A DNA stretch of 64,000 nt from Coriobacteriia bacterium (GCA_025361335.1 JANYAK010000002.1:1060-65059), one strand, 5' to 3'; counted from the stretch's first letter, positions 19,355-30,316 are shown. A program made the numbers and translations. Notes: generated by a model not told the origin, from the sequence alone.

Positions 19355-20092
19355 CTACGGCTCCTCAGCCCACCCCGGCACCTCGCGCCACCCCTCGCGC
19401 AGCTCGCGCCGCAGCGCGTCCGTATCGGGAACCCGCTCGCGAAGCAGCGCCCAGAACGCGGGCGAATGGTCGTGCCTCAGCGTGTGGACCAGCTCGTGCA
19501 CCATCACACAGCGCGCCAGTTCGGGGCGCAGGAACAGCAGCGACCGGTTGAGGCTGATGCCGCCGCTGCGCGAGCAGCTTCCCCACCGAGTGCGCTGGGC
19601 GCGCACCGTGGCGTGGGTGAAAGGGATCCCCTCCCGCGCCGAGACCTCCTCGAGCAGCGGCACCAGAAGCGTCCTCGCCTCCCGCGCGAGCCACCGCCGC
19701 AGGGCGGCGCGGCAGGCCTCGTCGTCGCCCGCCGGAGCGGTCACGACGATCCGCCCCGCCACTGTCGCGGCCCTCGCGCCCGCGTTCGCCAAGGTTCGCC
19801 GATACGTCACGTCGAACGACACGCCCGCCGCCGGCAGGTCGACCCGGGATGGGAGCGGCGCGCCGTCAGCCACGGCGAGATGCTCGCGATGCTCGGCGGT
19901 CCTGCGCATGGCGCGCTCTATCCACGCCGCGTGCCCGCGCAGCAGCCCCGGGATCCGCTTCCGGTCCGACTCGCGCGGGATGACCACGACGAGCCCCTCG
20001 CGTGGACTCACGAGCAGGCGGATGCGCCGGGCGCGGGCACTCAGTCGGACCGTGTGCGCCGGCAGGTCGTCGTCCTTGTGCGAGGGTGTCAC
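19355..20092 (-). CDS. YgjP/DUF45-family metal-dependent hydrolase (SprT-like, HExxH)
   Basis: C-terminal CVMVHELVHTLRHDHSPAFWALL contains HELVH. The start is set at GTG 20092 (VTPSHKDDD...) and is uncertain. The 308-aa track ORF start is likely too far upstream. Confidence 0.65.
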   Translation of the reverse strand: MTPSHKDDDLPAHTVRLSARARRIRLLVSPREGLVVVIPRESDRKRIPGLLRGHAAWIERAMRRTAEHREHLAVADGAPLPSRVDLPAAGVSFDVTYRRTLANAGARAATVAGRIVVTAPAGDDEACRAALRRWLAREARTLLVPLLEEVSAREGIPFTHATVRAQRTRWGSCSRSGGISLNRSLLFLRPELARCVMVHELVHTLRHDHSPAFWALLRERVPDTDALRRELREGWREVPGWAEEP

Positions 20093-20182
20093 TGGTCCGC
20101 TCCGGTACTTTCGGGTATGAGTGACACGGTAGCGCGAACCGGCGCCAGGCGCCGCTCGCATCGAACGGGGAGGCGATGACCG

Positions 20183-20377
20183 GTGAGACCCGTGGTGGAC
20201 CGCGATCTGTGCATCGGGTGCGGCTTGTGCCAGGACACTTGTCCCGAAGCCTTCGTCATCGAGGACGACAACCTGGCGCACGTCATCACCGAGAACCCCG
20301 AGCCCGAGCAGTACGACTGCATCCGCGAGGCCGAGGAAGTCTGCCCGGTCACCGCCATCACGATCGTCGAAGAGTAG
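20183..20377 (+). CDS. fdx: Small ferredoxin (single [3Fe-4S]/[4Fe-4S] type)
   Basis: 64 aa. Contains CIGCGLCQDTCP ... CP, a ferredoxin cluster-binding pattern. Acidic protein. Confidence 0.85.
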   Translation: MRPVVDRDLCIGCGLCQDTCPEAFVIEDDNLAHVITENPEPEQYDCIREAEEVCPVTAITIVEE

Positions 20378-20389
20378 CCCTCCCCCGCG

Positions 20390-22546
20390 CTACCGCCGGA
20401 TGAGGTAGCAGCGGTGGATCCGCGGGTGGCGGGCGAAGTCGGGCGGGATGGTCGCAGCGCTCACGTCCTCGATGCGCAGATCGCCCAGCGCCGCGACATC
20501 CAGCCGGAACTTGCGCAGGTTCGTCGAGAACACCAGCACGCCGTCCGGCTCCAGCAGCATCGCCGCGTCGCGGATCATCCCCGCGTGGTCGCGCTGGATG
20601 TCCAGCGTGCCCTCCATCGCGTTCGAGGACGAGAACGACGGCGGGTCGAGGAACACGACCCCGAAGCGGGGTCCTGACGGGTCCGCCGCAGCTTGCGCCA
20701 GCCACTTCGTGGCGTCGGCGCGGACCAGCCGGTGCGCCGGTTCACCGAGGCCGTTGAGCTCCAGGTTGCGGCCCGCCCACTCCAGGTAGGTCTTGGACAG
20801 GTCGACCGATGTGGTGGCCACGGCGCCGGCCAGTGCGGCAGCCACGGTGACCGCGCCCGTGTAGCAGAACAGGTTGCACAGCGAGCGACCCTCGGCCAGC
20901 TCCCCCACCATCCGCCGCGTCGTGCGGTGGTCCGGGAACAGCCCGGTGTCCAGATAGTCGTCCAGGTTGACCAGCAGGCGCGCGTCGCCCTCCCGCACCG
21001 TCAGGAAGCGGGAAGTGTGTGCGATACGCTCGTACTGGGCGGCCTCGCCACGCTGGCGGCGACGCACCTTGAGCCGCACCTCCGCGGGAGACATACCGAG
21101 CACCTCGGGAACAGCAGCAACGGCCTCCTGCAGACGCACCGACGCCTTGACCGGGTCGACATCGCGGGGAGCCTCGTACTCCGCCACCACCGCGCGCCTC
21201 ACTCCGTCCTCGCAGTCGTACACGTCGACCGAGACCGCGTAGTCGGGCAGGTCGGCGTCGTACACCCGCCACACCGTCACGCCCTCGCGCCGCGCCCACT
21301 TCGACAGGTGCCGCCAGTCCTTGCGAAGGCGATTCGCGAACGCCGCGGCGCCCGCCGTCTCGTCCACGACGCCGGGGACCGGCACGTCCGCCACGTCCAG
21401 CCGCACCGGGATCGTCCCGTTGAACAGCCGGTAGGTCTCCTCGGGAACGACTCCCACCGCCGCGGCCAGCGAGTCGTCATCCGTCAGCACCGCGCTGCGC
21501 CATCCCGGGAAGGCCTCCCGCAGACGCGCGCCCAGCATGCCGTACAGCGCCCCGACCTCGGACCTCTCGCCCACACGCTCGCCGTACGGGGGGTTCGCCG
21601 CGACCAGTCCGCATGCCGCGCCCTCGGGCGCCGAGGCGCGCTCGATGGGCAGACGCTCCACGCTCACCCGTCCCTTCAGGCCCGCGCGCGCGATGTTGGA
21701 GGTCGCCAGCTCCACGGCCGACGCCTGGCTGTCCGAGCCCGCGATCGGGGGCAGGGCGGCGAGGCCGGCTTCCGCCCGGTCGTCCGCCTCCACGATCAGG
21801 TCGTCCCACGCGTCGGAGTCGTGGCCGAGCCATCCGGTGAACCCGAAGCGTGGCCGAAGCAGCCCGGGCGCGACGTCGCCCGCGATCCATGCTCCCTCGA
21901 TGAGCAGGGTACCCGAGCCGCACATGGGGTCAACCAGCGCCCCCCCGGCGGCGGCGATGTCGCGCCAGCCGGCCAGCAGCAGCATGGCGGCCGCGAGCGA
22001 CTCCTTCAGCGGCGCGACCGCCTGGACCCCGGCCTCGCGGTAGCCGCGGCGATGCAGCGCGTCTCCCGCCAAGTCGATCGAGACCGTGGCGCGAAGAGAG
22101 CGGATCCGCACGTTGATGCGCACGTCGGGGCTCGCCGGGTCCACGGAGGGCCGGCGCCCGAACGTGTCGCGAAGCCGGTCCACGACCGCGTCCTTGACCT
22201 TCTGCGCACCGAACATCGTGTTACGGAACGCCGGGTTCGGGTCCGACGCGAAGTCGACCGCCAGGGTCCCATCCACCGGCACGTGATCCTCCCACGGAAG
22301 GGCGCGGACGCCCTCGTACAGCGCGTCCACCGAACCTGCGTCGACTATGGCCAGCGACAACAGGATCCTGCTGGCGGTGCGCGACCACAGGCAGGCCCGG
22401 TACGCCGCCGTCAGGTCGCCGCGGAACGACACGCCGGCGCGCGCCTCCCGCACGTCGCTCGCCCCCAGCGCACGCAGCTCCTCTGCCAGCACGGCCTCGA
22501 CCCCGCGGGCGCACGTGGCGAACAGGATGTGGCGCTTCTCGCTCAT
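20390..22546 (-). CDS. rlmL: Bifunctional 23S rRNA methyltransferase RlmKL-like (THUMP + two SAM-MTase domains)
   Basis: Starts MSEKRHILFATCARGVEAVLAEELRALGA (an ATGA overlap with the upstream gene). Contains DPMCGSGTLLIE, NPPYGER and a C-terminal class I MTase (NLFCYTG...FLDPP). The track ORF N-terminal extension is discounted. Confidence 0.85.
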   Translation of the reverse strand: MSEKRHILFATCARGVEAVLAEELRALGASDVREARAGVSFRGDLTAAYRACLWSRTASRILLSLAIVDAGSVDALYEGVRALPWEDHVPVDGTLAVDFASDPNPAFRNTMFGAQKVKDAVVDRLRDTFGRRPSVDPASPDVRINVRIRSLRATVSIDLAGDALHRRGYREAGVQAVAPLKESLAAAMLLLAGWRDIAAAGGALVDPMCGSGTLLIEGAWIAGDVAPGLLRPRFGFTGWLGHDSDAWDDLIVEADDRAEAGLAALPPIAGSDSQASAVELATSNIARAGLKGRVSVERLPIERASAPEGAACGLVAANPPYGERVGERSEVGALYGMLGARLREAFPGWRSAVLTDDDSLAAAVGVVPEETYRLFNGTIPVRLDVADVPVPGVVDETAGAAAFANRLRKDWRHLSKWARREGVTVWRVYDADLPDYAVSVDVYDCEDGVRRAVVAEYEAPRDVDPVKASVRLQEAVAAVPEVLGMSPAEVRLKVRRRQRGEAAQYERIAHTSRFLTVREGDARLLVNLDDYLDTGLFPDHRTTRRMVGELAEGRSLCNLFCYTGAVTVAAALAGAVATTSVDLSKTYLEWAGRNLELNGLGEPAHRLVRADATKWLAQAAADPSGPRFGVVFLDPPSFSSSNAMEGTLDIQRDHAGMIRDAAMLLEPDGVLVFSTNLRKFRLDVAALGDLRIEDVSAATIPPDFARHPRIHRCYLIRR

Positions 22547-23730
22547 GAGCTCGTCTCCGTTCCGGGAACCGTGTGCGCGTCGGCGACAGACCTCGCGCCG
22601 ACAGCTCCCGAGTCGAGCGGCTGCAGGCCGGATTCGAAGTACCCGCGCAGCGACGACGGCACGCGCTCGAGGTCCGCCGCCGCAACGAGAGCCGAGACGT
22701 CCCGCGCGTTGCAGGTGTCCCAGAACAGCACCGTGCGACCGGCCAGCCGGCCCTCGCGTCCCCACCCCAGCAGCGCCGCCAGCGTCTTGCCCGTGTACGT
22801 ACCCTCGGCGCGGATCCCGGCGCTCTCGGCCAGACGCACGGCTTCCATGCCCTCCGGCGTGAACCGCGCGTACTCATCGCCCAGATACCCGCACGCCACG
22901 AGCACGTCGTCCTCGCCCCACTCGTGCTGTGGGAACGTGGGGTCGGCGGCGCGCAGCAGCTCCTGCGTCTCGCGGATCAGAGCCAGCAAGCCGTCGGCCG
23001 TGTCCATCTCGTAGGACACGACCGGCACGCCGACCACCTTCGTCGCCAGCCCGGCGGCGCGCATCCCCAGCGCGAGGCCGACGGCGGTGCCCATGGAGCC
23101 CAGCGCGACGAACACGTAGTCCGGCTGGGGAAGCTCGCGGTGCTCCACCTGGGTGGCCAGCTCGAGCCCGGCGCTCACGAATCCGAGCGTCGAGCGCGGG
23201 TTCGTCCCGCCGAAGGGGATCACGTACGGCTCGCGGCCGGTGCTGTCGCGCAGCCTGCGCCTCAGCGCCGCGGTGCCGCGCAGCAGGTGCGCCTGGTCGG
23301 GGTAGTGGTGCAGGTCGGCGCCCGCGGACATCGCCGCCAGCACGTTGGTGCGCACGTAGCCCGCGTTCGGCTGGGGCAGCAGCATCGAGTGCACGCGCAG
23401 CCCGAGCGCCGCTCCGTGGATCGCCGTGGCCAGCGCGTGGTTCGACCCGGCGGCTCCGAACGTGATCACGTCCGACGCACCCGAGGCGAGCGCCTCGCCC
23501 AGAAGGAACTCCAGCTTGCGGACCTTGTTGCCGCCGTACACCTCGCCCGACAGGCCGTCGTCCTTGACCCACACGGCCGCCGCTGCGGCGGCTCGCGTCA
23601 GCTCGGGCGCCTCCGCGACCCGCGTCGGCAGCGTCGCCAACCGCACCCACGGCAGGTCGAGCGTGCCCGGATATCGGGCGAACAGCTCTCGGGCGAAGCG
23701 ACGGTCGTCCGTTCCGGGCCCAGCCGTCAC
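22543..23730 (-). CDS. PLP-dependent ACC deaminase / D-cysteine desulfhydrase family protein
   Basis: 395 aa. DDLSGEVYGGNKVRKLEFLL and GAAGSNHA match this fold-type II PLP family. Substrate is not assignable. Confidence 0.8.
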   Translation of the reverse strand: MTAGPGTDDRRFARELFARYPGTLDLPWVRLATLPTRVAEAPELTRAAAAAAVWVKDDGLSGEVYGGNKVRKLEFLLGEALASGASDVITFGAAGSNHALATAIHGAALGLRVHSMLLPQPNAGYVRTNVLAAMSAGADLHHYPDQAHLLRGTAALRRRLRDSTGREPYVIPFGGTNPRSTLGFVSAGLELATQVEHRELPQPDYVFVALGSMGTAVGLALGMRAAGLATKVVGVPVVSYEMDTADGLLALIRETQELLRAADPTFPQHEWGEDDVLVACGYLGDEYARFTPEGMEAVRLAESAGIRAEGTYTGKTLAALLGWGREGRLAGRTVLFWDTCNARDVSALVAAADLERVPSSLRGYFESGLQPLDSGAVGARSVADAHTVPGTETSS

Positions 23731-24209
23731 GGACGCTCGATCGTGACCGACTCCATGACGTCACCGCGCTCGATCGCATGCACCACGTCGAGCCCCTCGG
23801 TGACCTGGCCGAAGACGGTGTAGTTGTGGTCGAGGAACGTGTGGCGCCCCAGGCAGATGTAGAACTGGCTGCCGGCGGAGTCGGGCGAGGCCGCCCGCGC
23901 CATCGCGACAGTACCGTCGACGTGCGGCCGCTCGTTGAACTCCGCCCCAAGGTAGTAGCCCGGGCCGCCGGTACCGGCCGCTCCGCCCCCGTCACGCGAG
24001 AAGGGGTCCCCGCCCTGGATCACGAAACCGGGCTCGACGCGGTGGAACGTCGTGCCGTCATAGAAGCCCTTCTCCGCCAACTCGACGAATGCCGCGGCAT
24101 GCGTGGGCGCGTCCTTGCAAAAGAAGGTGAACTTGATGACGCCCTTGGGCGTCGTGATGACGGCGACTTCGTCGCCCGTGCATGTATAGGTCGGTTCGTG
24201 CAGAGCCAT
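23727..24209 (-). CDS. Peptidyl-prolyl cis-trans isomerase (cyclophilin type)
   Basis: Contains FHRV.PGFVIQGGDP and GSQFYICL. Start is chosen at the ATG preceded by AGGAGGATCC. The track start at 24257 is possible but lacks an RBS. Confidence 0.88.
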   Translation of the reverse strand: MALHEPTYTCTGDEVAVITTPKGVIKFTFFCKDAPTHAAAFVELAEKGFYDGTTFHRVEPGFVIQGGDPFSRDGGGAAGTGGPGYYLGAEFNERPHVDGTVAMARAASPDSAGSQFYICLGRHTFLDHNYTVFGQVTEGLDVVHAIERGDVMESVTIERP

Positions 24210-24253
24210 GGATCCTCCTGGATGCGTAGGGGAGAAGGGGTCGTGCGGAGCCG

Positions 24254-25066
24254 TCACTTGCCGTCCGCGAAGCCGGCGACGACGTACGTGCCCGAGCGCT
24301 GGTCGGTCCTCAGCGTGACGAGCCCCGACTTCTCAGCGTCCTCGAGCAGGGCCGAGAAGGTGCGGTACCCGTACGACGACTCCGCGAAGGCCGGGTTCTT
24401 GCGCTTCATCGTGTCCTTGACCAGCGACGAGTACATCACGTCCTTGTTCTCGCGCTGAAGACCCTGGATCGTCTCGACCAGCAGCTGCATGGCGGGACGC
24501 TTCTCCTTGGGAACGGACTGTGCCGACACCGAGGGCGGCGCCAAGGCTCCCGTGCCCAGGTCCTCGTAGTAGATGAACTCGTCGCAGCTGGCGGCCAGAA
24601 GGTCGGATGTGGAGTCCTTCATGCCCAGGCCGATGACGTTCTTGCCGTTCTCCTTGAGTTTGGCGACCAGCGGCGTGAAGTCGGAGTCGCCCGAGACGAT
24701 GACGAACGTGTCCACGTGATCCTTGCTGTAGCACATGTCCATGGCATCGACGACCAGCTGGATGTCGGCGTGGTTCTTGCCGGTCTTGCCGCGCTCGGGG
24801 ATCTCCATCATCTGGATGCCCGAGTCATGCATGATGACGCGGTACTTCTCGAAGCGGCCCCAGTCGGCGTAGGCACGCCGCACGATGACCTTGCCCTTCT
24901 CGATGAGCCTCTCGAGGATGGCGGTCACGTCCAACATGCCGTTGTTGGCCGACGCGGGTGCGCGGCGCCGGCGGCCCGCGGCGGCGGGCAGCCCGTCGCG
25001 CTCGTAGCCCAAGGCCAGGTTCTCGAAATCGATGAATACGGCGAGCGAGTGCGCCTCGTCAGCCAT
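24254..25066 (-). CDS. NYN-domain (PIN-like) protein with C-terminal OST-HTH/LOTUS domain
   Basis: 270 aa. Has LAVFIDFENL...AD..L..D.......D.FVIVSGDSDF.PLV.KL.E.GK.V NYN motifs. The C-terminal ~70 aa resemble LOTUS (YGY.TFSALL...SGLV.L). Confidence 0.8.
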   Translation of the reverse strand: MADEAHSLAVFIDFENLALGYERDGLPAAAGRRRRAPASANNGMLDVTAILERLIEKGKVIVRRAYADWGRFEKYRVIMHDSGIQMMEIPERGKTGKNHADIQLVVDAMDMCYSKDHVDTFVIVSGDSDFTPLVAKLKENGKNVIGLGMKDSTSDLLAASCDEFIYYEDLGTGALAPPSVSAQSVPKEKRPAMQLLVETIQGLQRENKDVMYSSLVKDTMKRKNPAFAESSYGYRTFSALLEDAEKSGLVTLRTDQRSGTYVVAGFADGK

Positions 25067-25193
25067 GTGTGTCCCCTCACAGGTCGGTACGCGGCGCAGT
25101 CGATGGCGCGCCGCCTCTCACTGGCGATGGTACTACTACTGCCCATCCTCTTGCGCGCAGAAACCCTCTGGGGTATCGTGCGGTTGGCACAAC

Positions 25194-25209
25194 ATTCGCA
25201 TATTCGCAT
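25194..25209. repeat. Perfect tandem 8-bp direct repeat ATTCGCAT-ATTCGCAT in the divergent NYN/arsR intergenic region
   Basis: Read directly at 25194-25201 and 25202-25209, about 40 nt upstream of the ArsR start. Candidate operator or promoter element. Confidence 0.5.
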
Positions 25210-25250
25210 GTTCATAGAACCCAAGCCGGTCAACGGCCCTGCCGGGAGCG

Positions 25251-25589
25251 ATGATGACGGACTCGAGTGACTTCTACTGCCTGCATTCCGAGATGTGCAA
25301 GACGCTTGCGAACGAGAAGCGCCAGCGCATACTCGACGCCCTGCGTGATGGCGAGCTGACGGTCTCGGACATCCAGGCGCGCACCGGGATCGCGCAGGCC
25401 ACCCTCTCCCAGCATCTGGGCATCATGCGCTCGAAGGGCATGCTCATCTCGCGCCGCGACGGCGCTCACGTCCACTACTTCCTGTCCAACGCGAAGATCC
25501 TGCAGGCGTTCGACCTCATCAGCGAGGTTCTCGCCGAGCAGATGGATGTACGCAAGGAAGCCATCGACAGCGCGCTCGGCGAGAGGTGA
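25251..25589 (+). CDS. ArsR/SmtB-family transcriptional regulator
   Basis: 112 aa. LANEKRQRILDAL..GELTVSDIQ...GIAQATLSQHL..M...G....RRDG..V.Y is a winged-HTH of the ArsR type. Confidence 0.9.
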   Translation: MMTDSSDFYCLHSEMCKTLANEKRQRILDALRDGELTVSDIQARTGIAQATLSQHLGIMRSKGMLISRRDGAHVHYFLSNAKILQAFDLISEVLAEQMDVRKEAIDSALGER

Positions 25590-25662
25590 CGGCAGCAATC
25601 GCGGCATGAGCCGCCGCGGCACGAACGAAGAGGCGACCACGACACGAAGGAGCGGAAAGACG

Positions 25663-26172
25663 ATGTCAGACGCAGCGATGGAAGCGGTATTGGCGGCACC
25701 GCGCAAGAAGAAGCTGACCATGGTCGTGATGAGCGGAGACATGGACAAGCTGTTCGGCGCTTTCATCATCGCCACCGGCGCCGCGGCGATGGGCATGGAA
25801 GTGATCATGTTCTTCACGTTCTGGGGCCTTCGCGCCATCAAGAAGGATGTCCGGACCGGCCAGACCTTCTTCGGCAAGATGCTCGGCCTCATGTACGGCG
25901 GGGACATCTCGAAGTCCGATCCGTCCAAGTTCAGCTTCGGCGGCATGGGCCGGTGGATGTTCGGGAAGATGATGGGTGCGAACAACGTCGCCAAGCTCAC
26001 CGAGCTACGCGACCTTGCCGTGATGCTGGGCGTGGGCCTGTATCCGTGCCAGATGTCCATGGACGTCATGGAGATCCCCGCAGAGTCGTTCATCGACGGC
26101 GTCAAGCCGGCCGTCGGCGTCGGCTTCATGCTCGGCGAGGCCGAGGAGTCCGGGATCCAGTTCTTCATCTAG
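25663..26172 (+). CDS. DsrE2/DsrE3-like sulfur-relay protein (DsrE/DsrF/DrsH-like, DrsE_2 family)
   Basis: ATG at 25663 follows GAAGGAGCGG. KLTMVVMSGDMDKLFGAFIIATGAAAMGMEVIMFFTFWGL...LYPCQMSMDVM...FI matches this family, including the conserved Cys. The upstream part of the 208-aa track ORF overlaps arsR and is discounted. Confidence 0.85.
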   Translation: MSDAAMEAVLAAPRKKKLTMVVMSGDMDKLFGAFIIATGAAAMGMEVIMFFTFWGLRAIKKDVRTGQTFFGKMLGLMYGGDISKSDPSKFSFGGMGRWMFGKMMGANNVAKLTELRDLAVMLGVGLYPCQMSMDVMEIPAESFIDGVKPAVGVGFMLGEAEESGIQFFI

Positions 26173-26228
26173 ACAGCCGGGCGCGCCGCGCCCGCGCCAC
26201 GACGAGCCACCGACCGAAAGGAACGCAC

Positions 26229-26471
26229 ATGTCCGACGAAATCAAGCCCGATCTGGAGCTCGACCTGAAGGGTCTGCTCTGCCCCCTGCCCATGGTCAAG
26301 GTGTCCCAGAGGATCAAGGACGTCCCGGTGGGCGGAGTCATCCGTGCCGTCGCGACCGACCCCGGCGCCATGGCCGACATCCCCGCATGGGCCAAGTCGA
26401 CAGGCAACGAAGTCGTGTCGGCCGGGAAGGTCGGCGGCGAGTTCGTGTTCCTCGTCAAGCGCGTCAAGTAG
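26229..26471 (+). CDS. tusA: TusA/SirA-family sulfurtransferase
   Basis: 80 aa. LDLKGLLCPLPMVK carries the diagnostic CPxP active-site motif. Embedded in the longer track ORF 25953..26471. Confidence 0.9.
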   Translation: MSDEIKPDLELDLKGLLCPLPMVKVSQRIKDVPVGGVIRAVATDPGAMADIPAWAKSTGNEVVSAGKVGGEFVFLVKRVK

Positions 26472-26493
26472 CCGGAAGGACGAACCGAAGTAC

Positions 26494-27219
26494 ATGGAAA
26501 CCTACCTGCAGATCACCTCGGTGTGGGGTGTGTACCTCTCCATCGCGGTGTTCGTCGCGGGGATGGCCTGGCGCATCTGGGAATGGAGCACGACGCCCCG
26601 TTCCCCGATACCGCTGGGCATGTTCCCCAAGCCCAGAACGGGCACCGGGCGGTTCTTCAAGATGTTGAAGGACACGTTCATCGCTCCGCAGTCGTTCCGG
26701 ATCGAGCCGTGGATGTGGCTCGCCGCCATGGCGTTCCATATCGCCGCGCTCGGTGCGTTCGTCGGCCACCTGCGGCTGATCCACGAGTTCCCGTTCCTGC
26801 CCTCGCTGCTGGGCGAAGCCGGCATGAACACGTTCGCCGCCTGGTCCGGGTCGATCGCCGGCGTGCTGATGCTGGGCGCGATCCTGTTCTGGATCGCGCG
26901 GCGCACCACGGGCCCGTACAAGACGATCTCGGTGCCCGAGGACTACCTGCTGCTCGCGCTGCTGTTCGGCGTCGTCATCATGGGCGACCACATGCGCTTC
27001 GTGTACGGCTCGATCGTGCACGCCGCGACGTATCGCGAGTGGTTCCTGAGCCTGCTGGCGTTCAAGCCGGCGTTCCCCGTCGAGCTCACATCGAGCAACG
27101 TCGCGTTCTCGCTGGGGACGCACATGCTGTTCGTCGACCTGTTCCTGATCTACTTCCCGTTCAGCAAGCTCGTGCACACCGTGGGCGCGCTGGCATCCAA
27201 CTACGTGAGGAGTGAGTAG
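26494..27219 (+). CDS. NarI/DsrM/HdrE-like membrane di-haem cytochrome b (quinol-interacting subunit)
   Basis: From METYLQITSVWGVYLSIAVF... About 5 TM helices with conserved His pairs (AFHIAALGAFVGHLRLIH; GDHM...IVH; GTHM...KLVH). Adjoins the DsrK-like gene with a 2-nt gap. Confidence 0.8.
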   Translation: METYLQITSVWGVYLSIAVFVAGMAWRIWEWSTTPRSPIPLGMFPKPRTGTGRFFKMLKDTFIAPQSFRIEPWMWLAAMAFHIAALGAFVGHLRLIHEFPFLPSLLGEAGMNTFAAWSGSIAGVLMLGAILFWIARRTTGPYKTISVPEDYLLLALLFGVVIMGDHMRFVYGSIVHAATYREWFLSLLAFKPAFPVELTSSNVAFSLGTHMLFVDLFLIYFPFSKLVHTVGALASNYVRSE

Positions 27220-27221
27220 CC

Positions 27222-28520
27222 ATGGCTGACGCCACAACGACCGAAGCCACCGAGCTCGCCACCCTCGCGGGTGTCATCGACAAGAAGATGACGCGCCAGC
27301 TCAAACAGTATTTGGACCTCTGCGCTCGCTGCGCGATCTGCAAGGACGCGTGCCACCAGTACGTGGCGACGCAGGACGTGAAATACCTGCCCGCCTACCG
27401 CGCGGAACTGATCCGGCGCATCTACAAGAAGTACTTCGACAAGACCGGCCGTTTCGTGCCGGCGCTGTACGAAGGCCGCGATCCCGACGAGAACCTGCTC
27501 GACGAGCTCTACGAGACGACGTACGCGTGCACCGGCTGCCGACGCTGCATGTACTTCTGCCCCTTCTCCATCGACACGCAGTTCATCCTGTCGGTGGCCA
27601 AAGCGATGCTGATCGCGGCGGGCAGGGGCAACGAGATGCTCGGCCAGCTCGCCGACGCCGCCATCTTCAAGGGCGACAACATGGAGATGTTCCACGACGT
27701 GATCGTGGACGGCTTCAAGGACGTCGAGAAGGAGGTCCAGGAGATCACCGGCGACCCCACGGCCGAGATCCCCGTCGACAAGCAGGGCGCCGACATCCTG
27801 TACGTCGCGCTCGCCGGGGCGCACTCCATCCGGCCCGCCGCGGTCATCTTCCACGAAGCCAAGGAGTCCTGGACGCTGTCACTGTTCGAGGCCGCCAACT
27901 ACGGCTTCTTCTTCGGCGACCCCGTCAAGGCCCGCAAGATCGCCGACCGCTTCATGGACGAGGCCGTGCGCCTCGGCGTGAAGGAGGTCGTGATCACCGA
28001 GTGCGGTCACGCGTATCGCGTCGCGGAGATCTTCCACGAGGCCTGGGCGGGCAAGAAGCACCCCTTCAAGGTGACCCACGTGCTCGAGAAGATCGACGCC
28101 TACATCAAGGACGGCCGCATCAAGGTCTCCAAGGCAATCGAGTTGCCGATCACCTATCACGACCCCTGCCAGATCGGTCGCAACGGCGGCATCTTCGAGC
28201 AGCCGCGCGACATCGTGAAGGCCATCAGCAAGGACTTCCGGGACATGACGCCCAACCGCCAGGAGCAGTGGTGCTGCGGCGGCGGCGGCGGGATCGTGGC
28301 CATCGACGAGATGAACGAGTTCCGCCTCAAATCCGGTATGAAGAAGGTCGAGCAGATCCGCGCGACGGGCGCCAAGATCGTGGCCAGCCCCTGCGAGAAC
28401 TGCAGGCTCCAGATGGAGGGGCTCGACGAAGTGCACCAGCTCGGCGTCCGCATCGCGGCGATCATGGACTTGGTCGTCGAGTCCATGCCGCTGAAGGGGC
28501 GCGACGCCGCGAAGGTCTGA
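27222..28520 (+). CDS. DsrK/HdrD-like Fe-S (CCG-domain) heterodisulfide-reductase-type catalytic subunit
   Basis: 432 aa. Two ferredoxin-type motifs (CARCAICKDAC, CTGCRRCMYFCP) plus two CCG-type Cys-rich regions (ITECGHAY...DPCQIGRNGG; WCCGGGGG...SPCENC). Confidence 0.85.
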   Translation: MADATTTEATELATLAGVIDKKMTRQLKQYLDLCARCAICKDACHQYVATQDVKYLPAYRAELIRRIYKKYFDKTGRFVPALYEGRDPDENLLDELYETTYACTGCRRCMYFCPFSIDTQFILSVAKAMLIAAGRGNEMLGQLADAAIFKGDNMEMFHDVIVDGFKDVEKEVQEITGDPTAEIPVDKQGADILYVALAGAHSIRPAAVIFHEAKESWTLSLFEAANYGFFFGDPVKARKIADRFMDEAVRLGVKEVVITECGHAYRVAEIFHEAWAGKKHPFKVTHVLEKIDAYIKDGRIKVSKAIELPITYHDPCQIGRNGGIFEQPRDIVKAISKDFRDMTPNRQEQWCCGGGGGIVAIDEMNEFRLKSGMKKVEQIRATGAKIVASPCENCRLQMEGLDEVHQLGVRIAAIMDLVVESMPLKGRDAAKV

Positions 28521-28546
28521 CGTCGGCATACTCCGCTCCCTCTCAA

Positions 28547-28581
28547 GGGGCCGACATCGGGATACGCCCGGTGTCGGCCCC
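28547..28581 (+). terminator. GC-rich hairpin downstream of the dsrK-like gene (intrinsic-terminator-like)
   Basis: GGGGCCGACA...TGTCGGCCCC, perfect 10-bp arms, with further pairing possible in the 15-nt loop. It is followed by TT and sits 27 nt after the stop. Confidence 0.55.
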
Positions 28582-28600
28582 TTCGCGTATGCTGTCGGTC

Positions 28601-30316
28601 ATGGCTCACACACCCGACATGCGACCCTCCCGGCGACCTGCGGCACGCCGAAGCGCGACGGCAGGCAGGCGGCCATCGCGCGCGGTGAGGCTGGCGATCA
28701 CGCTCGGGTTCTTGGTCGCCCTCTTCGCGGCGGCCGCGTGGGGTCTGTCCCGCTTCGCCTCCGGCGCCGCGCCCGCTCCCGCGGCGGTCGTGAAAACGAC
28801 CGCCACCGCCTCCCCGATCAAGCCCGCGAAGCCCGCCATCGACGCCGCTCTCGAGGCGGCACGCAGCTCCATCGTGTTCGGCTCGTTCCTTGGGGACGGG
28901 AACCGCCGCACGTACGGCCAGGGGCCGGCGCCCAAGAGCCTCAACCTCATCTGGAAGGTCAAGCTGGGTTCCGGGAAGACACGGCGCAAGTTGGACGACA
29001 AGCCGGTGTCGTGGGCGGGCAACGGCTGGACGGGCCAGTGCACCGTGGTGAACGAGGCCGGCCGCGACTACCTTTTGGTAGGGGCGTACGACCACAACCT
29101 GAGGCGCATCGACGCGCTGACGGGGAACGTCATCTGGACGTCCCTGTTCGACGATGTCATCAAGGGCACGAACACGGTCTTCGCCAACCCGCATCCCACG
29201 GGCGACGAGGATCGCATCATCGTGGCCGCCGGGTCCCGCCGCGGATCGGACTACAAGGTCGGCGACCCCCGGATCGCACCGTTCCGGGCGGTCTCGTTCG
29301 CCACCGGCCGGGAGCTGTGGCGCTTCCCGATACCCAAGACACCGCAGTACAGCCAGGATGTCGACTCCTCGTCGCTGCTGGTCGACGACACGCTCTATGT
29401 TCCTGTCGAGTCCGGCTACGTCTACGGGCTCGACCCCAGCCGAACCCAGCCGTGGCTCGACTGGGTCTCGCCGGTCCAGCGGTACCGATCCCCCGAGCTG
29501 TGGACCGCGGCCGACGTCGCGACGCACAAGGACATCGGTGGCGCGAACATCGCCATCGAGGCTTCCGTCTCTCGCATCGGGTCGACCCTCTACCAGCCCT
29601 CGGGCGCGGGGCACATCTACGGGCTGCGCCTCCCTGACCTCAGGGTCGTGTGGGACTACCGCACCGGGTCCGACATCGACGGGACCGCGGCCGTGACCCG
29701 CGACAACAAGCTCGTCTGCACCATCGAGAAGCAGTACATCGCCGGGCACGGCGGCGCCATGATGCTCGATCCGAGCAGACCGCCCGAGCAGGCGACCATG
29801 TGGTACTTCCCGACCCCGGACCACGGCATCGGCGAGTGGGCCGGCGGCAGCGTCGGGTCCGCGGCCATCAACGACGAGACGAACAAGGATGGTTCCCGGC
29901 CGGCGCTGGCCGCGTTCACGTCGGTGGACGGCAACCTCTACGTCGTCTCGCAGGACACGATGGCGCCCAAGAAGGTGCCCCGCTTCGACGGCACGGGTGC
30001 CTACCCCACGCCGGTGGAGGTGTTCCACGGCTCCATCGGCGGATCGATCTCGACCCCCGCATTCGTGGGCGACACGATCGTCGCGGCCGGTTACGGCAAT
30101 GCGGTCGAGCTGTTCCGGGTCGTGTACACCCCGGCCGCCCAGGGCGGATCCGGCGTCGAACTTCCCGCGCGCGACGGCAGCCGGTGGAAGGTGGCCGTCA
30201 AGCGCGTGGCGAAGTTCAAGGCGGGAGCGGGGTTCGAGGCCACTCCCCTCGTCTGGAAAGGCCGCGTCTACATCGGGTGCCGGGACGGCTGGCTGTACTG
30301 CCTCGGCGACAAGTAG
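28601..30316 (+). CDS. Membrane-anchored PQQ-like/BamB-like beta-propeller repeat protein
   Basis: Arg-rich N-tail, one TM (AVRLAITLGFLVALFAAAAWGL), then repeated ...G.V.W......(Y.G)...D..LY motifs ending GRVYIGCRDGWLYCLG. The start may be 28589 or 28601. The 988-aa track ORF upstream part is in a different frame from dsrK and is discounted. Confidence 0.75.
   Translation: MAHTPDMRPSRRPAARRSATAGRRPSRAVRLAITLGFLVALFAAAAWGLSRFASGAAPAPAAVVKTTATASPIKPAKPAIDAALEAARSSIVFGSFLGDGNRRTYGQGPAPKSLNLIWKVKLGSGKTRRKLDDKPVSWAGNGWTGQCTVVNEAGRDYLLVGAYDHNLRRIDALTGNVIWTSLFDDVIKGTNTVFANPHPTGDEDRIIVAAGSRRGSDYKVGDPRIAPFRAVSFATGRELWRFPIPKTPQYSQDVDSSSLLVDDTLYVPVESGYVYGLDPSRTQPWLDWVSPVQRYRSPELWTAADVATHKDIGGANIAIEASVSRIGSTLYQPSGAGHIYGLRLPDLRVVWDYRTGSDIDGTAAVTRDNKLVCTIEKQYIAGHGGAMMLDPSRPPEQATMWYFPTPDHGIGEWAGGSVGSAAINDETNKDGSRPALAAFTSVDGNLYVVSQDTMAPKKVPRFDGTGAYPTPVEVFHGSIGGSISTPAFVGDTIVAAGYGNAVELFRVVYTPAAQGGSGVELPARDGSRWKVAVKRVAKFKAGAGFEATPLVWKGRVYIGCRDGWLYCLGDK

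Follow-up and report, generated by a model that had tools for sequence, protein, structure and literature searches.

A conserved ArsR, DsrE2-, TusA-, DsrM- and DsrK-like gene cassette of Coriobacteriia and other anaerobes may encode a membrane oxidoreductase for carrier-bound sulfane sulfur

The 64,000-nt stretch of Coriobacteriia DNA analyzed here (GCA_025361335.1, JANYAK010000002.1:1060-65059; hereafter, the window) carries a compact plus-strand cassette of five genes, which encode an ArsR-type repressor, a DsrE2-like protein, a TusA-family sulfur carrier, a DsrM-like membrane cytochrome b and a DsrK-like iron-sulfur protein with a CCG motif (Table 1). The source genome of the window (G000) comprises 1.81 Mb in 61 contigs and is 92% complete, and the nearest named relatives of the window proteins stem from metagenome-assembled genomes of Coriobacteriia/Anaerosomatales. 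Genes were called from a listing of open reading frames (ORFs) together with Pfam and NCBIfam profile scans of the window proteins; the DsrE2-like ORF spans 25546-26172, with 25663 as its probable start. All five genes were found where a preliminary description, made from the DNA sequence, had placed them, and that description was also correct about the 2-nt spacing between the dsrM-like stop and the dsrK-like start and about the two cysteine motifs it had named, LYPCQMSMD (Cys129) in the DsrE2-like protein and CPLP (Cys18) in TusA. Among sequencing runs, those listed as containing the stretch are sediment-metagenome DNA runs, three of which may be the source sample, and no RNA run was among them.

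Table 1. Features of the cassette and their positions in the window
Feature	Position	Strand	Evidence or remark
Operator-like imperfect palindrome ATTCGCATATTCGCAT	25194..25209		ATTC-N8-GAAT type, one mismatch, 42 nt before arsR start
ArsR/SmtB-family repressor, 112 aa, candidate two-cysteine sensor (Cys10, Cys16)	25251..25589	+	HTH_5 1.3e-11
DsrE2B-like sulfur-carrier protein, 169 aa, single Cys129 in LYPCQMSMD	25663..26172	+	DrsE_2 PF13686 4e-41
TusA-family sulfur carrier, 80 aa, Cys18 in CPLP	26229..26471	+	PF01206 9.4e-19
NarI/DsrM-like membrane cytochrome b, 241 aa	26494..27219	+	PF02665 3e-15
DsrK-type CCG iron-sulfur protein, 432 aa	27222..28520	+	CCG 1.9e-15 plus 4Fe-4S dicluster motifs
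17-bp G+C-rich hairpin just after dsrK-like stop	28545..28583	+	probable end of transcription unit

When species genomes were scanned for relatives of the CCG protein, 74 loci came to light, with identities to the window's protein of 71-88% in Coriobacteriia and 57-63% in Dehalococcoidia. In 72 of these loci, the DsrE2-like, TusA, DsrM-like and DsrK-like genes occur in constant order and orientation, the remaining two loci ending at contig edges, and an ArsR gene is present as well in 68 of the 74. Because all four core genes are kept in this arrangement, their grouping lies far beyond chance, and the five genes form a real, autonomous unit. Intergenic gaps are short across the loci; dsrM and dsrK overlap or are separated by ≤3 nt almost everywhere, and the two genes are translationally coupled. 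The genes that flank the cassette in the window, i.e., an NYN gene and a gene for a 22-heme cytochrome, are not found beside it elsewhere. With the 22-heme gene next to the cassette in 0/74 loci and a strong hairpin ending the operon, the idea raised in the preliminary description that the module might feed electrons to the neighboring cytochrome island has lost ground. Folding of 28515-28610 gave -54.4 kcal/mol (z = -6.7 against 200 shuffles), while a scan for consensus promoters and terminators produced nothing useful in this high-G+C window and did not list the hairpin, which has no T-run.

Searching 1.84 billion cluster representatives revealed a third lineage, at 47% identity, with the order MarR, DrsE_2, TusA, NarI, CCG, downstream of which lies a gene for an outer-membrane protein. 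Close relatives of this lineage bear the source names Desulfobacterales, Desulfatiglandales and an Olavius symbiont, and its MarR has three cysteines. Since MarR here stands in for ArsR, the four-gene core persists while the regulator is exchanged. TusA/DsrE2 neighbors are absent from a fused DsrM-DsrK relative (P0124) with 38% identity. On a metagenome contig (L088:6001-8475), the fused form has 661 amino acids, and the small protein encoded after it shows a faint match to MtrC/MtrF-type multiheme proteins, a different wiring of the DsrM-DsrK module.

Within the order, the cassette occurs in 71 of 146 genomes (53/98 among those of high quality). The other three genomes from the genus of the window lack it, and copies 88-89% identical reside in another genus and in another family; the cassette is thus an accessory and patchy trait of the order. 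The G+C content of the cassette and its upstream intergenic region is 63-65%, versus 71-72% in the upstream flank (window 24001-28000 versus 20001-24000). The lower G+C and the patchy occurrence are compatible with gain by transfer or with repeated loss. Cassette-bearing genomes include G058 (probable Anaerosoma tenue), G066 (probable Parvivirga hydrogeniphila) and G067 (strain EMTCatB1; the same place as locus L018), the latter two having a common genus code. Each of these three encodes a single molybdopterin oxidoreductase with an in-frame TGA, probably a selenocysteine-containing enzyme of the formate-dehydrogenase type.

The membrane protein is predicted to have five hydrophobic helices. 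It carries two histidine pairs, His82/His92 and His210/His228, whose spacings of 10 and 18 residues are those of NarI, and all four histidines are 100% conserved across 72 sequences; with these heme ligands, which in NarI-type DsrM with two hemes b lie in helices 2 and 5, the subunit has the architecture of a di-heme cytochrome b. Its NCBIfam scores were 79.8 bits for DsrM (cut-off 300), 37.7 for NarI and 30.8 for TmcC (cut-off 240). The DsrK-like protein contains a pair of CX2CX2CX3C motifs and a single complete CCG motif (Cys316, Cys351, Cys352, Cys391, Cys394); of its first CCG-like half, TECGH with Cys261 is all that is left. All 14 of these cysteines (eight cubane, Cys261, five CCG) are 97-100% conserved. 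A single CCG motif combined with a [T/G]ECGH cysteine is common to DsrK, HmcF and TmcB, where this signature is tied to reduction of the DsrC trisulfide and probably essential for disulfide/trisulfide reduction (PMC10861901). In our motif alignment, TECGH is common to the cassette proteins and the sequences above the DsrK cut-off, and the group containing an HdrD-annotated sequence, in a distant part of the tree, has CxxC at this place.

Profile scores and phylogeny place the DsrK-like protein near DsrK, not within it. Among named NCBIfam families, DsrK scored 292.3 bits (cut-off 400), TmcB 238 (735) and HmcF 234 (750); scores for lactate and glycerol-3-phosphate families were far lower (GlpC 53 and 36, LdhH 67, LutB 18 bits). 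We built a FastTree phylogeny of 97 representatives and a quick mixture-model tree of 46 sequences. The cassette CCG proteins fall into a group of their own (support 90, or 99 when the fused relative is included). Two clades adjoin it, one with every sequence that passes the DsrK cut-off (98) and one that leans toward HmcF/TmcB (98), the trees leaving the order of the three open. The protein does not branch inside the bona fide DsrK clade, and the equivalog cut-offs of DsrK and DsrM are not reached. A grouping with glycolate- or lactate-type enzymes, named in the preliminary description as the outcome that would speak against a sulfur function, was not what we saw: the protein groups with DsrK/HmcF/TmcB, far from GlpC/LutA. 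An AlphaFold (AF2) model of the DsrK-like protein (pLDDT 86) matched best the folds of EtfD from M. smegmatis (template modeling [TM] score 0.63), LutA and HdrB. As to the cytochrome, basal DsrM sequences of Chloroflexi that lack DsrAB have been remarked on before (PMC10504309).

Among the two carriers, TusA is the most conserved protein of the whole cassette, with a mean identity of 85% within Coriobacteriia and 68% to Dehalococcoidia. It scores 67.5 bits against PF01206 (cut-off 28.6) and does not reach the E. coli TusA equivalog (41 versus a cut-off of 78). Cys18 is conserved in 73/73 sequences, and Cys18 and Pro19/Pro21 are invariant in 46-73 sequences. The genome has a second, stand-alone TusA-family gene (G000:C57:25064-25270; locus L003:1444-1716) that encodes 90 amino acids with a CPMP motif; its neighbor on the opposite strand encodes a ZIP-type metal transporter, and no sulfur-related genes lie beside it. 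The DsrE2-like protein scores 141 bits against PF13686 (cut-off 25) and 73.5 against NCBIfam DsrE2, under the cut-off of 210. DsrE2 proteins of subgroup A have two conserved cysteines and those of subgroup B one, PDB 2qs7 being a DsrE2B structure (PMC4175335). Cys129 is the sole conserved cysteine (70/70), which sets the protein apart from the two-cysteine A type, and PDB 3pnx and 2qs7 are both matched. From the single invariant cysteine and these structural matches, we assign it to the soluble DsrE2B type. Of the label "DsrE2/E3" originally attached to this gene, the DsrE2 part therefore stands in the narrower form of DsrE2B-like, and the DsrE3 part falls away, the DsrE3A structure being unmatched.

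The repressor reaches 75 bits for an NCBIfam ArsR/SmtB subfamily (cut-off 55) and 49.9 for BigR, below the cut-off of 155, and its closest solved relatives in the PDB include BigR, SqrR, HlyU and YgaV. ATTC-N8-GAAT is the site of the persulfide sensor SqrR and has also been seen at the ygaV promoter (PMC9774250). With at most one mismatch, it is present in 44 of 66 regions upstream of cassette arsR genes from two phyla, versus 4.5 in shuffled sequences, an approximately tenfold enrichment, and in 0/60 control pieces of equal length from inside the dsrK-like genes. The consensus of these sites, ACATTCGCATATTCG(A/C)AT(G/A)T, is a near-perfect 20-bp palindrome in both phyla, and in Dehalococcoidia it directly follows recognizable -35 and -10 boxes. 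SqrR senses persulfides with a dithiol, whereby a tetrasulfide bridge forms (bioRxiv 10.1101/2020.03.22.001966). In the cassette repressors, Cys16 is present in 66/66 sequences; the second cysteine is at position 10 in 52 Coriobacteriia-type proteins and at position 87 in 13 from Dehalococcoidia, never at both, and one protein has neither, such that 65/66 repressors have exactly two sensor-candidate cysteines. Because the second cysteine alternates between positions 10 and 87, we suggest that it is the dithiol that matters, by analogy with SqrR. As in SqrR, BigR and YgaV, then, an ArsR-family protein with two cysteines per protomer is paired with an ATTC-N8-GAAT operator over the promoter of a putative sulfur operon. 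Different from the operons of these sensors, the regulated genes encode a membrane reductase-like module rather than SQR (sulfide:quinone oxidoreductase), a persulfide dioxygenase or a rhodanese.

What might such a module act on? A search for the DsrC family (PF04358) was negative in the window's genome and in 50/50 further genomes with the cassette, a number of them complete. In the window's genome, at 92% completeness, we found neither a NIR_SIR (sulfite-reductase) domain nor a molybdopterin oxidoreductase; DrsE_2 and CCG proteins beyond those of the cassette were not found either, and hence no sHdr. The absence of DsrAB, DsrC and DsrEFH that had been reported for the cassette thus holds genome-wide, and no canonical DsrC/DsrAB or Hdr-like system turned up that could serve as its partner. 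The same genome has one rhodanese-domain protein and, elsewhere, a cysteine-desulfurase-type gene (275 bits), which speaks against the cassette as the sole sulfur-mobilizing route. The preliminary description had proposed TusA or the DsrE2-like protein as redox substrate of a quinol-dependent enzyme; its first half has gained weight, these two being the only conserved candidate partners, while the quinol half receives no support from pathway markers (see below).

Comparison with known systems brings out what is peculiar to the cassette. DsrMK(JOP) is a menaquinol:DsrC-trisulfide oxidoreductase (PMC10861901) and acts last in sulfate respiration. The cassette shares with DsrMK a NarI-type di-heme cytochrome b and a cytoplasmic two-cubane protein with one full CCG motif and the [T/G]ECGH cysteine, as well as adjacent, translationally coupled genes and DsrK as the best-scoring named family. 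In contrast to DsrMKJOP, it has neither DsrC, DsrAB nor DsrJOP (51 genomes; DsrC searched in all, NIR_SIR in the window's), and it further differs from DsrMK in its sub-cut-off scores, its separate clade, its constant company of TusA and a DsrE2B-like protein, and its own thiol-type repressor. The rhd-tusA-dsrE2 and dsrE3-dsrE2-tusA clusters of Allochromatium and Metallosphaera (PMC4175335) likewise combine a CPxP TusA with a DrsE_2 protein and have a redox link of the CCG type (Hdr-like/Dsr); they differ in that the cassette lacks a rhodanese gene, soluble sHdr, a lipoate-binding protein and DsrEFH, that its redox partner is a membrane DsrMK-type pair, and that its hosts are strict anaerobes and not known sulfur oxidizers.

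Similarly, TmcABCD and HmcABCDEF of sulfate reducers pair a cytochrome b (TmcC/HmcE) with a single-CCG T/GECGH protein (TmcB/HmcF) whose cytoplasmic substrate is likewise uncertain, yet the cassette proteins score far under the respective cut-offs and lack a conserved gene for a periplasmic multiheme subunit. HdrDE is set apart by the two full CCG motifs of HdrD, of which the first half in the cassette protein keeps only Cys261. In EtfD/Emo, the mycobacterial electron-transfer flavoprotein (ETF):menaquinone oxidoreductase (PDB 9ojn), a NarI-like membrane part is also wired via iron-sulfur clusters to a CCG domain (PMC13083937). However, EtfD is one fused chain with two CCG sites (a linear 3Fe-4S cluster and a His-capped noncubane), shielded from solvent and fed by a flavoprotein (PMC13083937), whereas in the cassette the two parts are separate genes, with one CCG motif and a TECGH cysteine of the exposed type (ECGHA versus TCPHC in EtfD).

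On the basis of synteny and conserved cysteines, we see about an even chance that the cassette encodes an inducible membrane oxidoreductase that acts on sulfane sulfur bound to TusA/DsrE2, these carriers replacing DsrC. In this scheme, the five genes would constitute one self-contained operon, with ArsR binding an SqrR-type operator over the promoter and probably being released once sulfane sulfur modifies its two cysteines. The DsrM-like cytochrome b would pass electrons across or within the membrane to the two cubane clusters of the cytoplasmic DsrK-like subunit, and these would hand them to the single noncubane CCG cluster with the nearby catalytic cysteine of TECGH, presumably with the same chemistry as in DsrK. 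The substrate would be sulfane sulfur on Cys18 of TusA, as suggested by the strict synteny and the lack of DsrC, with Cys129 of the DsrE2B-like protein as a putative co-carrier or loader. The most likely direction is reductive, whereby a carrier persulfide or polysulfide plus two electrons would yield carrier thiol and sulfide; we favor it because no enzyme that takes the sulfur further was found and because the hosts are strict anaerobes.

For such organisms, the role of the cassette would be inducible removal or turnover of reactive sulfane sulfur rather than the main, growth-supporting respiration. The Parvivirga hydrogeniphila isolate reduces neither sulfur nor thiosulfate, and the sulfur respiration of Anaerosoma has been ascribed by its authors to a molybdoenzyme (PMC9686372). 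Since the probable Parvivirga genome carries the cassette and the isolate cannot respire sulfur, a main respiratory role is disfavored; if the identification of G066 as Parvivirga holds, the cassette does not suffice to sustain growth on sulfur respiration.

Organisms that make menaquinol would use it as the electron donor. The window's genome encodes MenA above the cut-off. Across the order, MenA is present in 24/146 genomes and an MqnA/D-family gene in 93/146, the two being nearly complementary, with both in only 2. These menaquinone markers (MenA or MqnA/D) do not track the cassette, being present in 56 of 71 genomes with it and in 59 of 75 without. The Dehalococcoidia carriers searched gave only sub-threshold MenA-like matches. 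Quinone independence, as might be read from a missing MenA even in closed genomes, was considered and dropped in view of the frequent and near-complementary MqnA/D-family gene. In three loci (L014:1141-4248, L010:65-3217 and L015:733-3903), three futalosine-pathway-like genes, namely, two radical SAM genes and one of the MqnA/D family, lie directly upstream of the cassette, in L014 in place of the ArsR gene. We did not retain this adjacency as a link to menaquinone, as it is confined to these loci. Altogether, menaquinol is a plausible donor by likeness to DsrM and NarI, and another membrane or extracytoplasmic electron donor may serve instead.

Several observations weigh against the proposed carrier-persulfide reductase. 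As for its donor, the window's genome lacks MenB, an MqnA/D-family gene and homologs of the relatives' futalosine genes; 15/71 cassette genomes, some of them 96-100% complete, have neither MenA nor MqnA/D; and no quinones were detectable in either cultured relative (PMC9686372). As for its switch, the ArsR cysteines are off the SqrR/BigR positions, the aligned positions 29 and 95 never being cysteine in 66 sequences. As for the carriers, tusA-dsrE2 pairs are classically tied to sulfur oxidation, and none of the sulfur compounds tried in vitro reacted with Metallosphaera DsrE2B (PMC4175335). The nearest solved fold, EtfD, moves electrons from a flavoprotein to menaquinone with no S-S chemistry (PMC13083937); because this fold serves a non-sulfur partner, that of the DsrK-like protein is no proof of a sulfur substrate. 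In addition, the reductive direction is one that we infer, and the identity of G058 and G066 with the two isolates is only probable.

Four rival explanations were weighed. The enzyme could run the opposite way, the DsrK-like protein oxidizing sulfide plus a carrier thiol to TusA/DsrE2 persulfide, or carrier-bound sulfur further, and electrons entering the membrane via cytochrome b toward quinone or multiheme cytochromes, which would make it an anaerobic, protein-acceptor counterpart of SQR. DsrMK is indeed reversed in sulfur oxidizers, where tusA-dsrE2 arrangements are typical (PMC10504309, PMC4175335), and known persulfide-sensing repressors mostly govern sulfide-oxidizing genes (bioRxiv 10.1101/2020.03.22.001966; PMC9774250). 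We nonetheless think this direction unlikely: no DsrAB, second CCG/sHdr protein or molybdoenzyme was found to carry sulfur past the persulfide, the cytochrome genes beside the cassette are not conserved, and the hosts inhabit reduced sediments as strict anaerobes. Somewhat harder to sustain is that the DsrMK-like pair acts on another partner altogether, be it a small di- or polysulfide or a redox protein of the EtfD/ETF kind, while the carriers only supply, buffer or sense sulfur. Such a partner would suit the best structural match, EtfD, which acts on no sulfur substrate (PMC13083937), the related CCG proteins that serve lactate, glycerol-3-phosphate and fumarate enzymes, and the fused relative P0124 with no carrier genes beside it. 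Yet wherever the contig is long enough, members of the cassette clade have all four genes together, no other neighbor is conserved, and EtfD, unlike the cassette protein with its DsrK-type TECGH and single CCG, possesses a shielded cavity and a further CCG site, C-x-H-C (PMC13083937, PMC10861901).

A purely biosynthetic role, with sulfur delivered to thiolated tRNA, cofactors or iron-sulfur clusters as by E. coli TusA, strikes us as quite improbable, even though TusA-family proteins do such jobs and the genome has its second, stand-alone TusA. Half of the order's genomes, as well as the window's own genus, manage without the cassette; a dedicated repressor governs it; a cysteine-desulfurase-type gene is available elsewhere; no molybdoenzyme that would need sulfur for its molybdenum cofactor was found; and sulfur transfer alone requires no membrane cytochrome b. 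Finally, an ordinary DsrMK whose DsrC/DsrAB hides in the unassembled 8% of the genome would fit the incomplete assembly and the top score for DsrK, but is hardly credible given that DsrC turned up in none of the 51 cassette genomes searched, a number of which are complete, that the DsrK and DsrM scores stay under their cut-offs, and that the clade is separate from the sequences passing the DsrK cut-off.

Beyond the hairpin that follows the cassette, the window encodes a membrane-anchored PQQ/BamB-like beta-propeller protein (28601-30316). A PQQ-like propeller gene follows the cassette in about 8/74 to roughly 1 in 7 related loci, and also on the P0014 contigs. Because the strong hairpin separates it from the cassette, we regard this gene as a recurrent neighbor rather than a fixed part.

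Our literature search found no published description of a TusA/DsrE2/DsrMK-like cassette, and the paper on Anaerosomatales is silent on these genes. DsrMK-type modules have been understood only together with DsrC, and TusA/DsrE carriers mainly in sulfur oxidizers and in tRNA and cofactor synthesis. Against this background, we tentatively put forward, as possible rather than probable, that the cassette specifies a DsrC-independent TusA-persulfide reductase (or the reverse) with TusA as its redox substrate and a new two-cysteine variant of the SqrR-type sensor as its switch. In strict anaerobes, such an enzyme would take the part that the oxygen-dependent SQR/persulfide-dioxygenase systems play in sulfide stress, and uncultured Coriobacteriia, Dehalococcoidia and Desulfobacterota would carry it by the thousands. 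A caution for annotation follows from the cassette in any case: "DsrK" and "DsrM" labels in Coriobacteriia and Dehalococcoidia genomes are not evidence of sulfite respiration. The system is small, consisting of four proteins plus a repressor whose operator is defined, and two cultured relatives probably carry it, which makes it directly testable; an assay exists for the DsrC-dependent homolog (PMC10861901). If the proposal is true, TusA would gain a new role as direct partner of a membrane redox enzyme, independent of a Dsr or sHdr system, and the cassette would hint at how bacteria of the oxygen-free subsurface deal with reactive sulfane sulfur, which the detoxifying enzymes known so far can remove only with oxygen.

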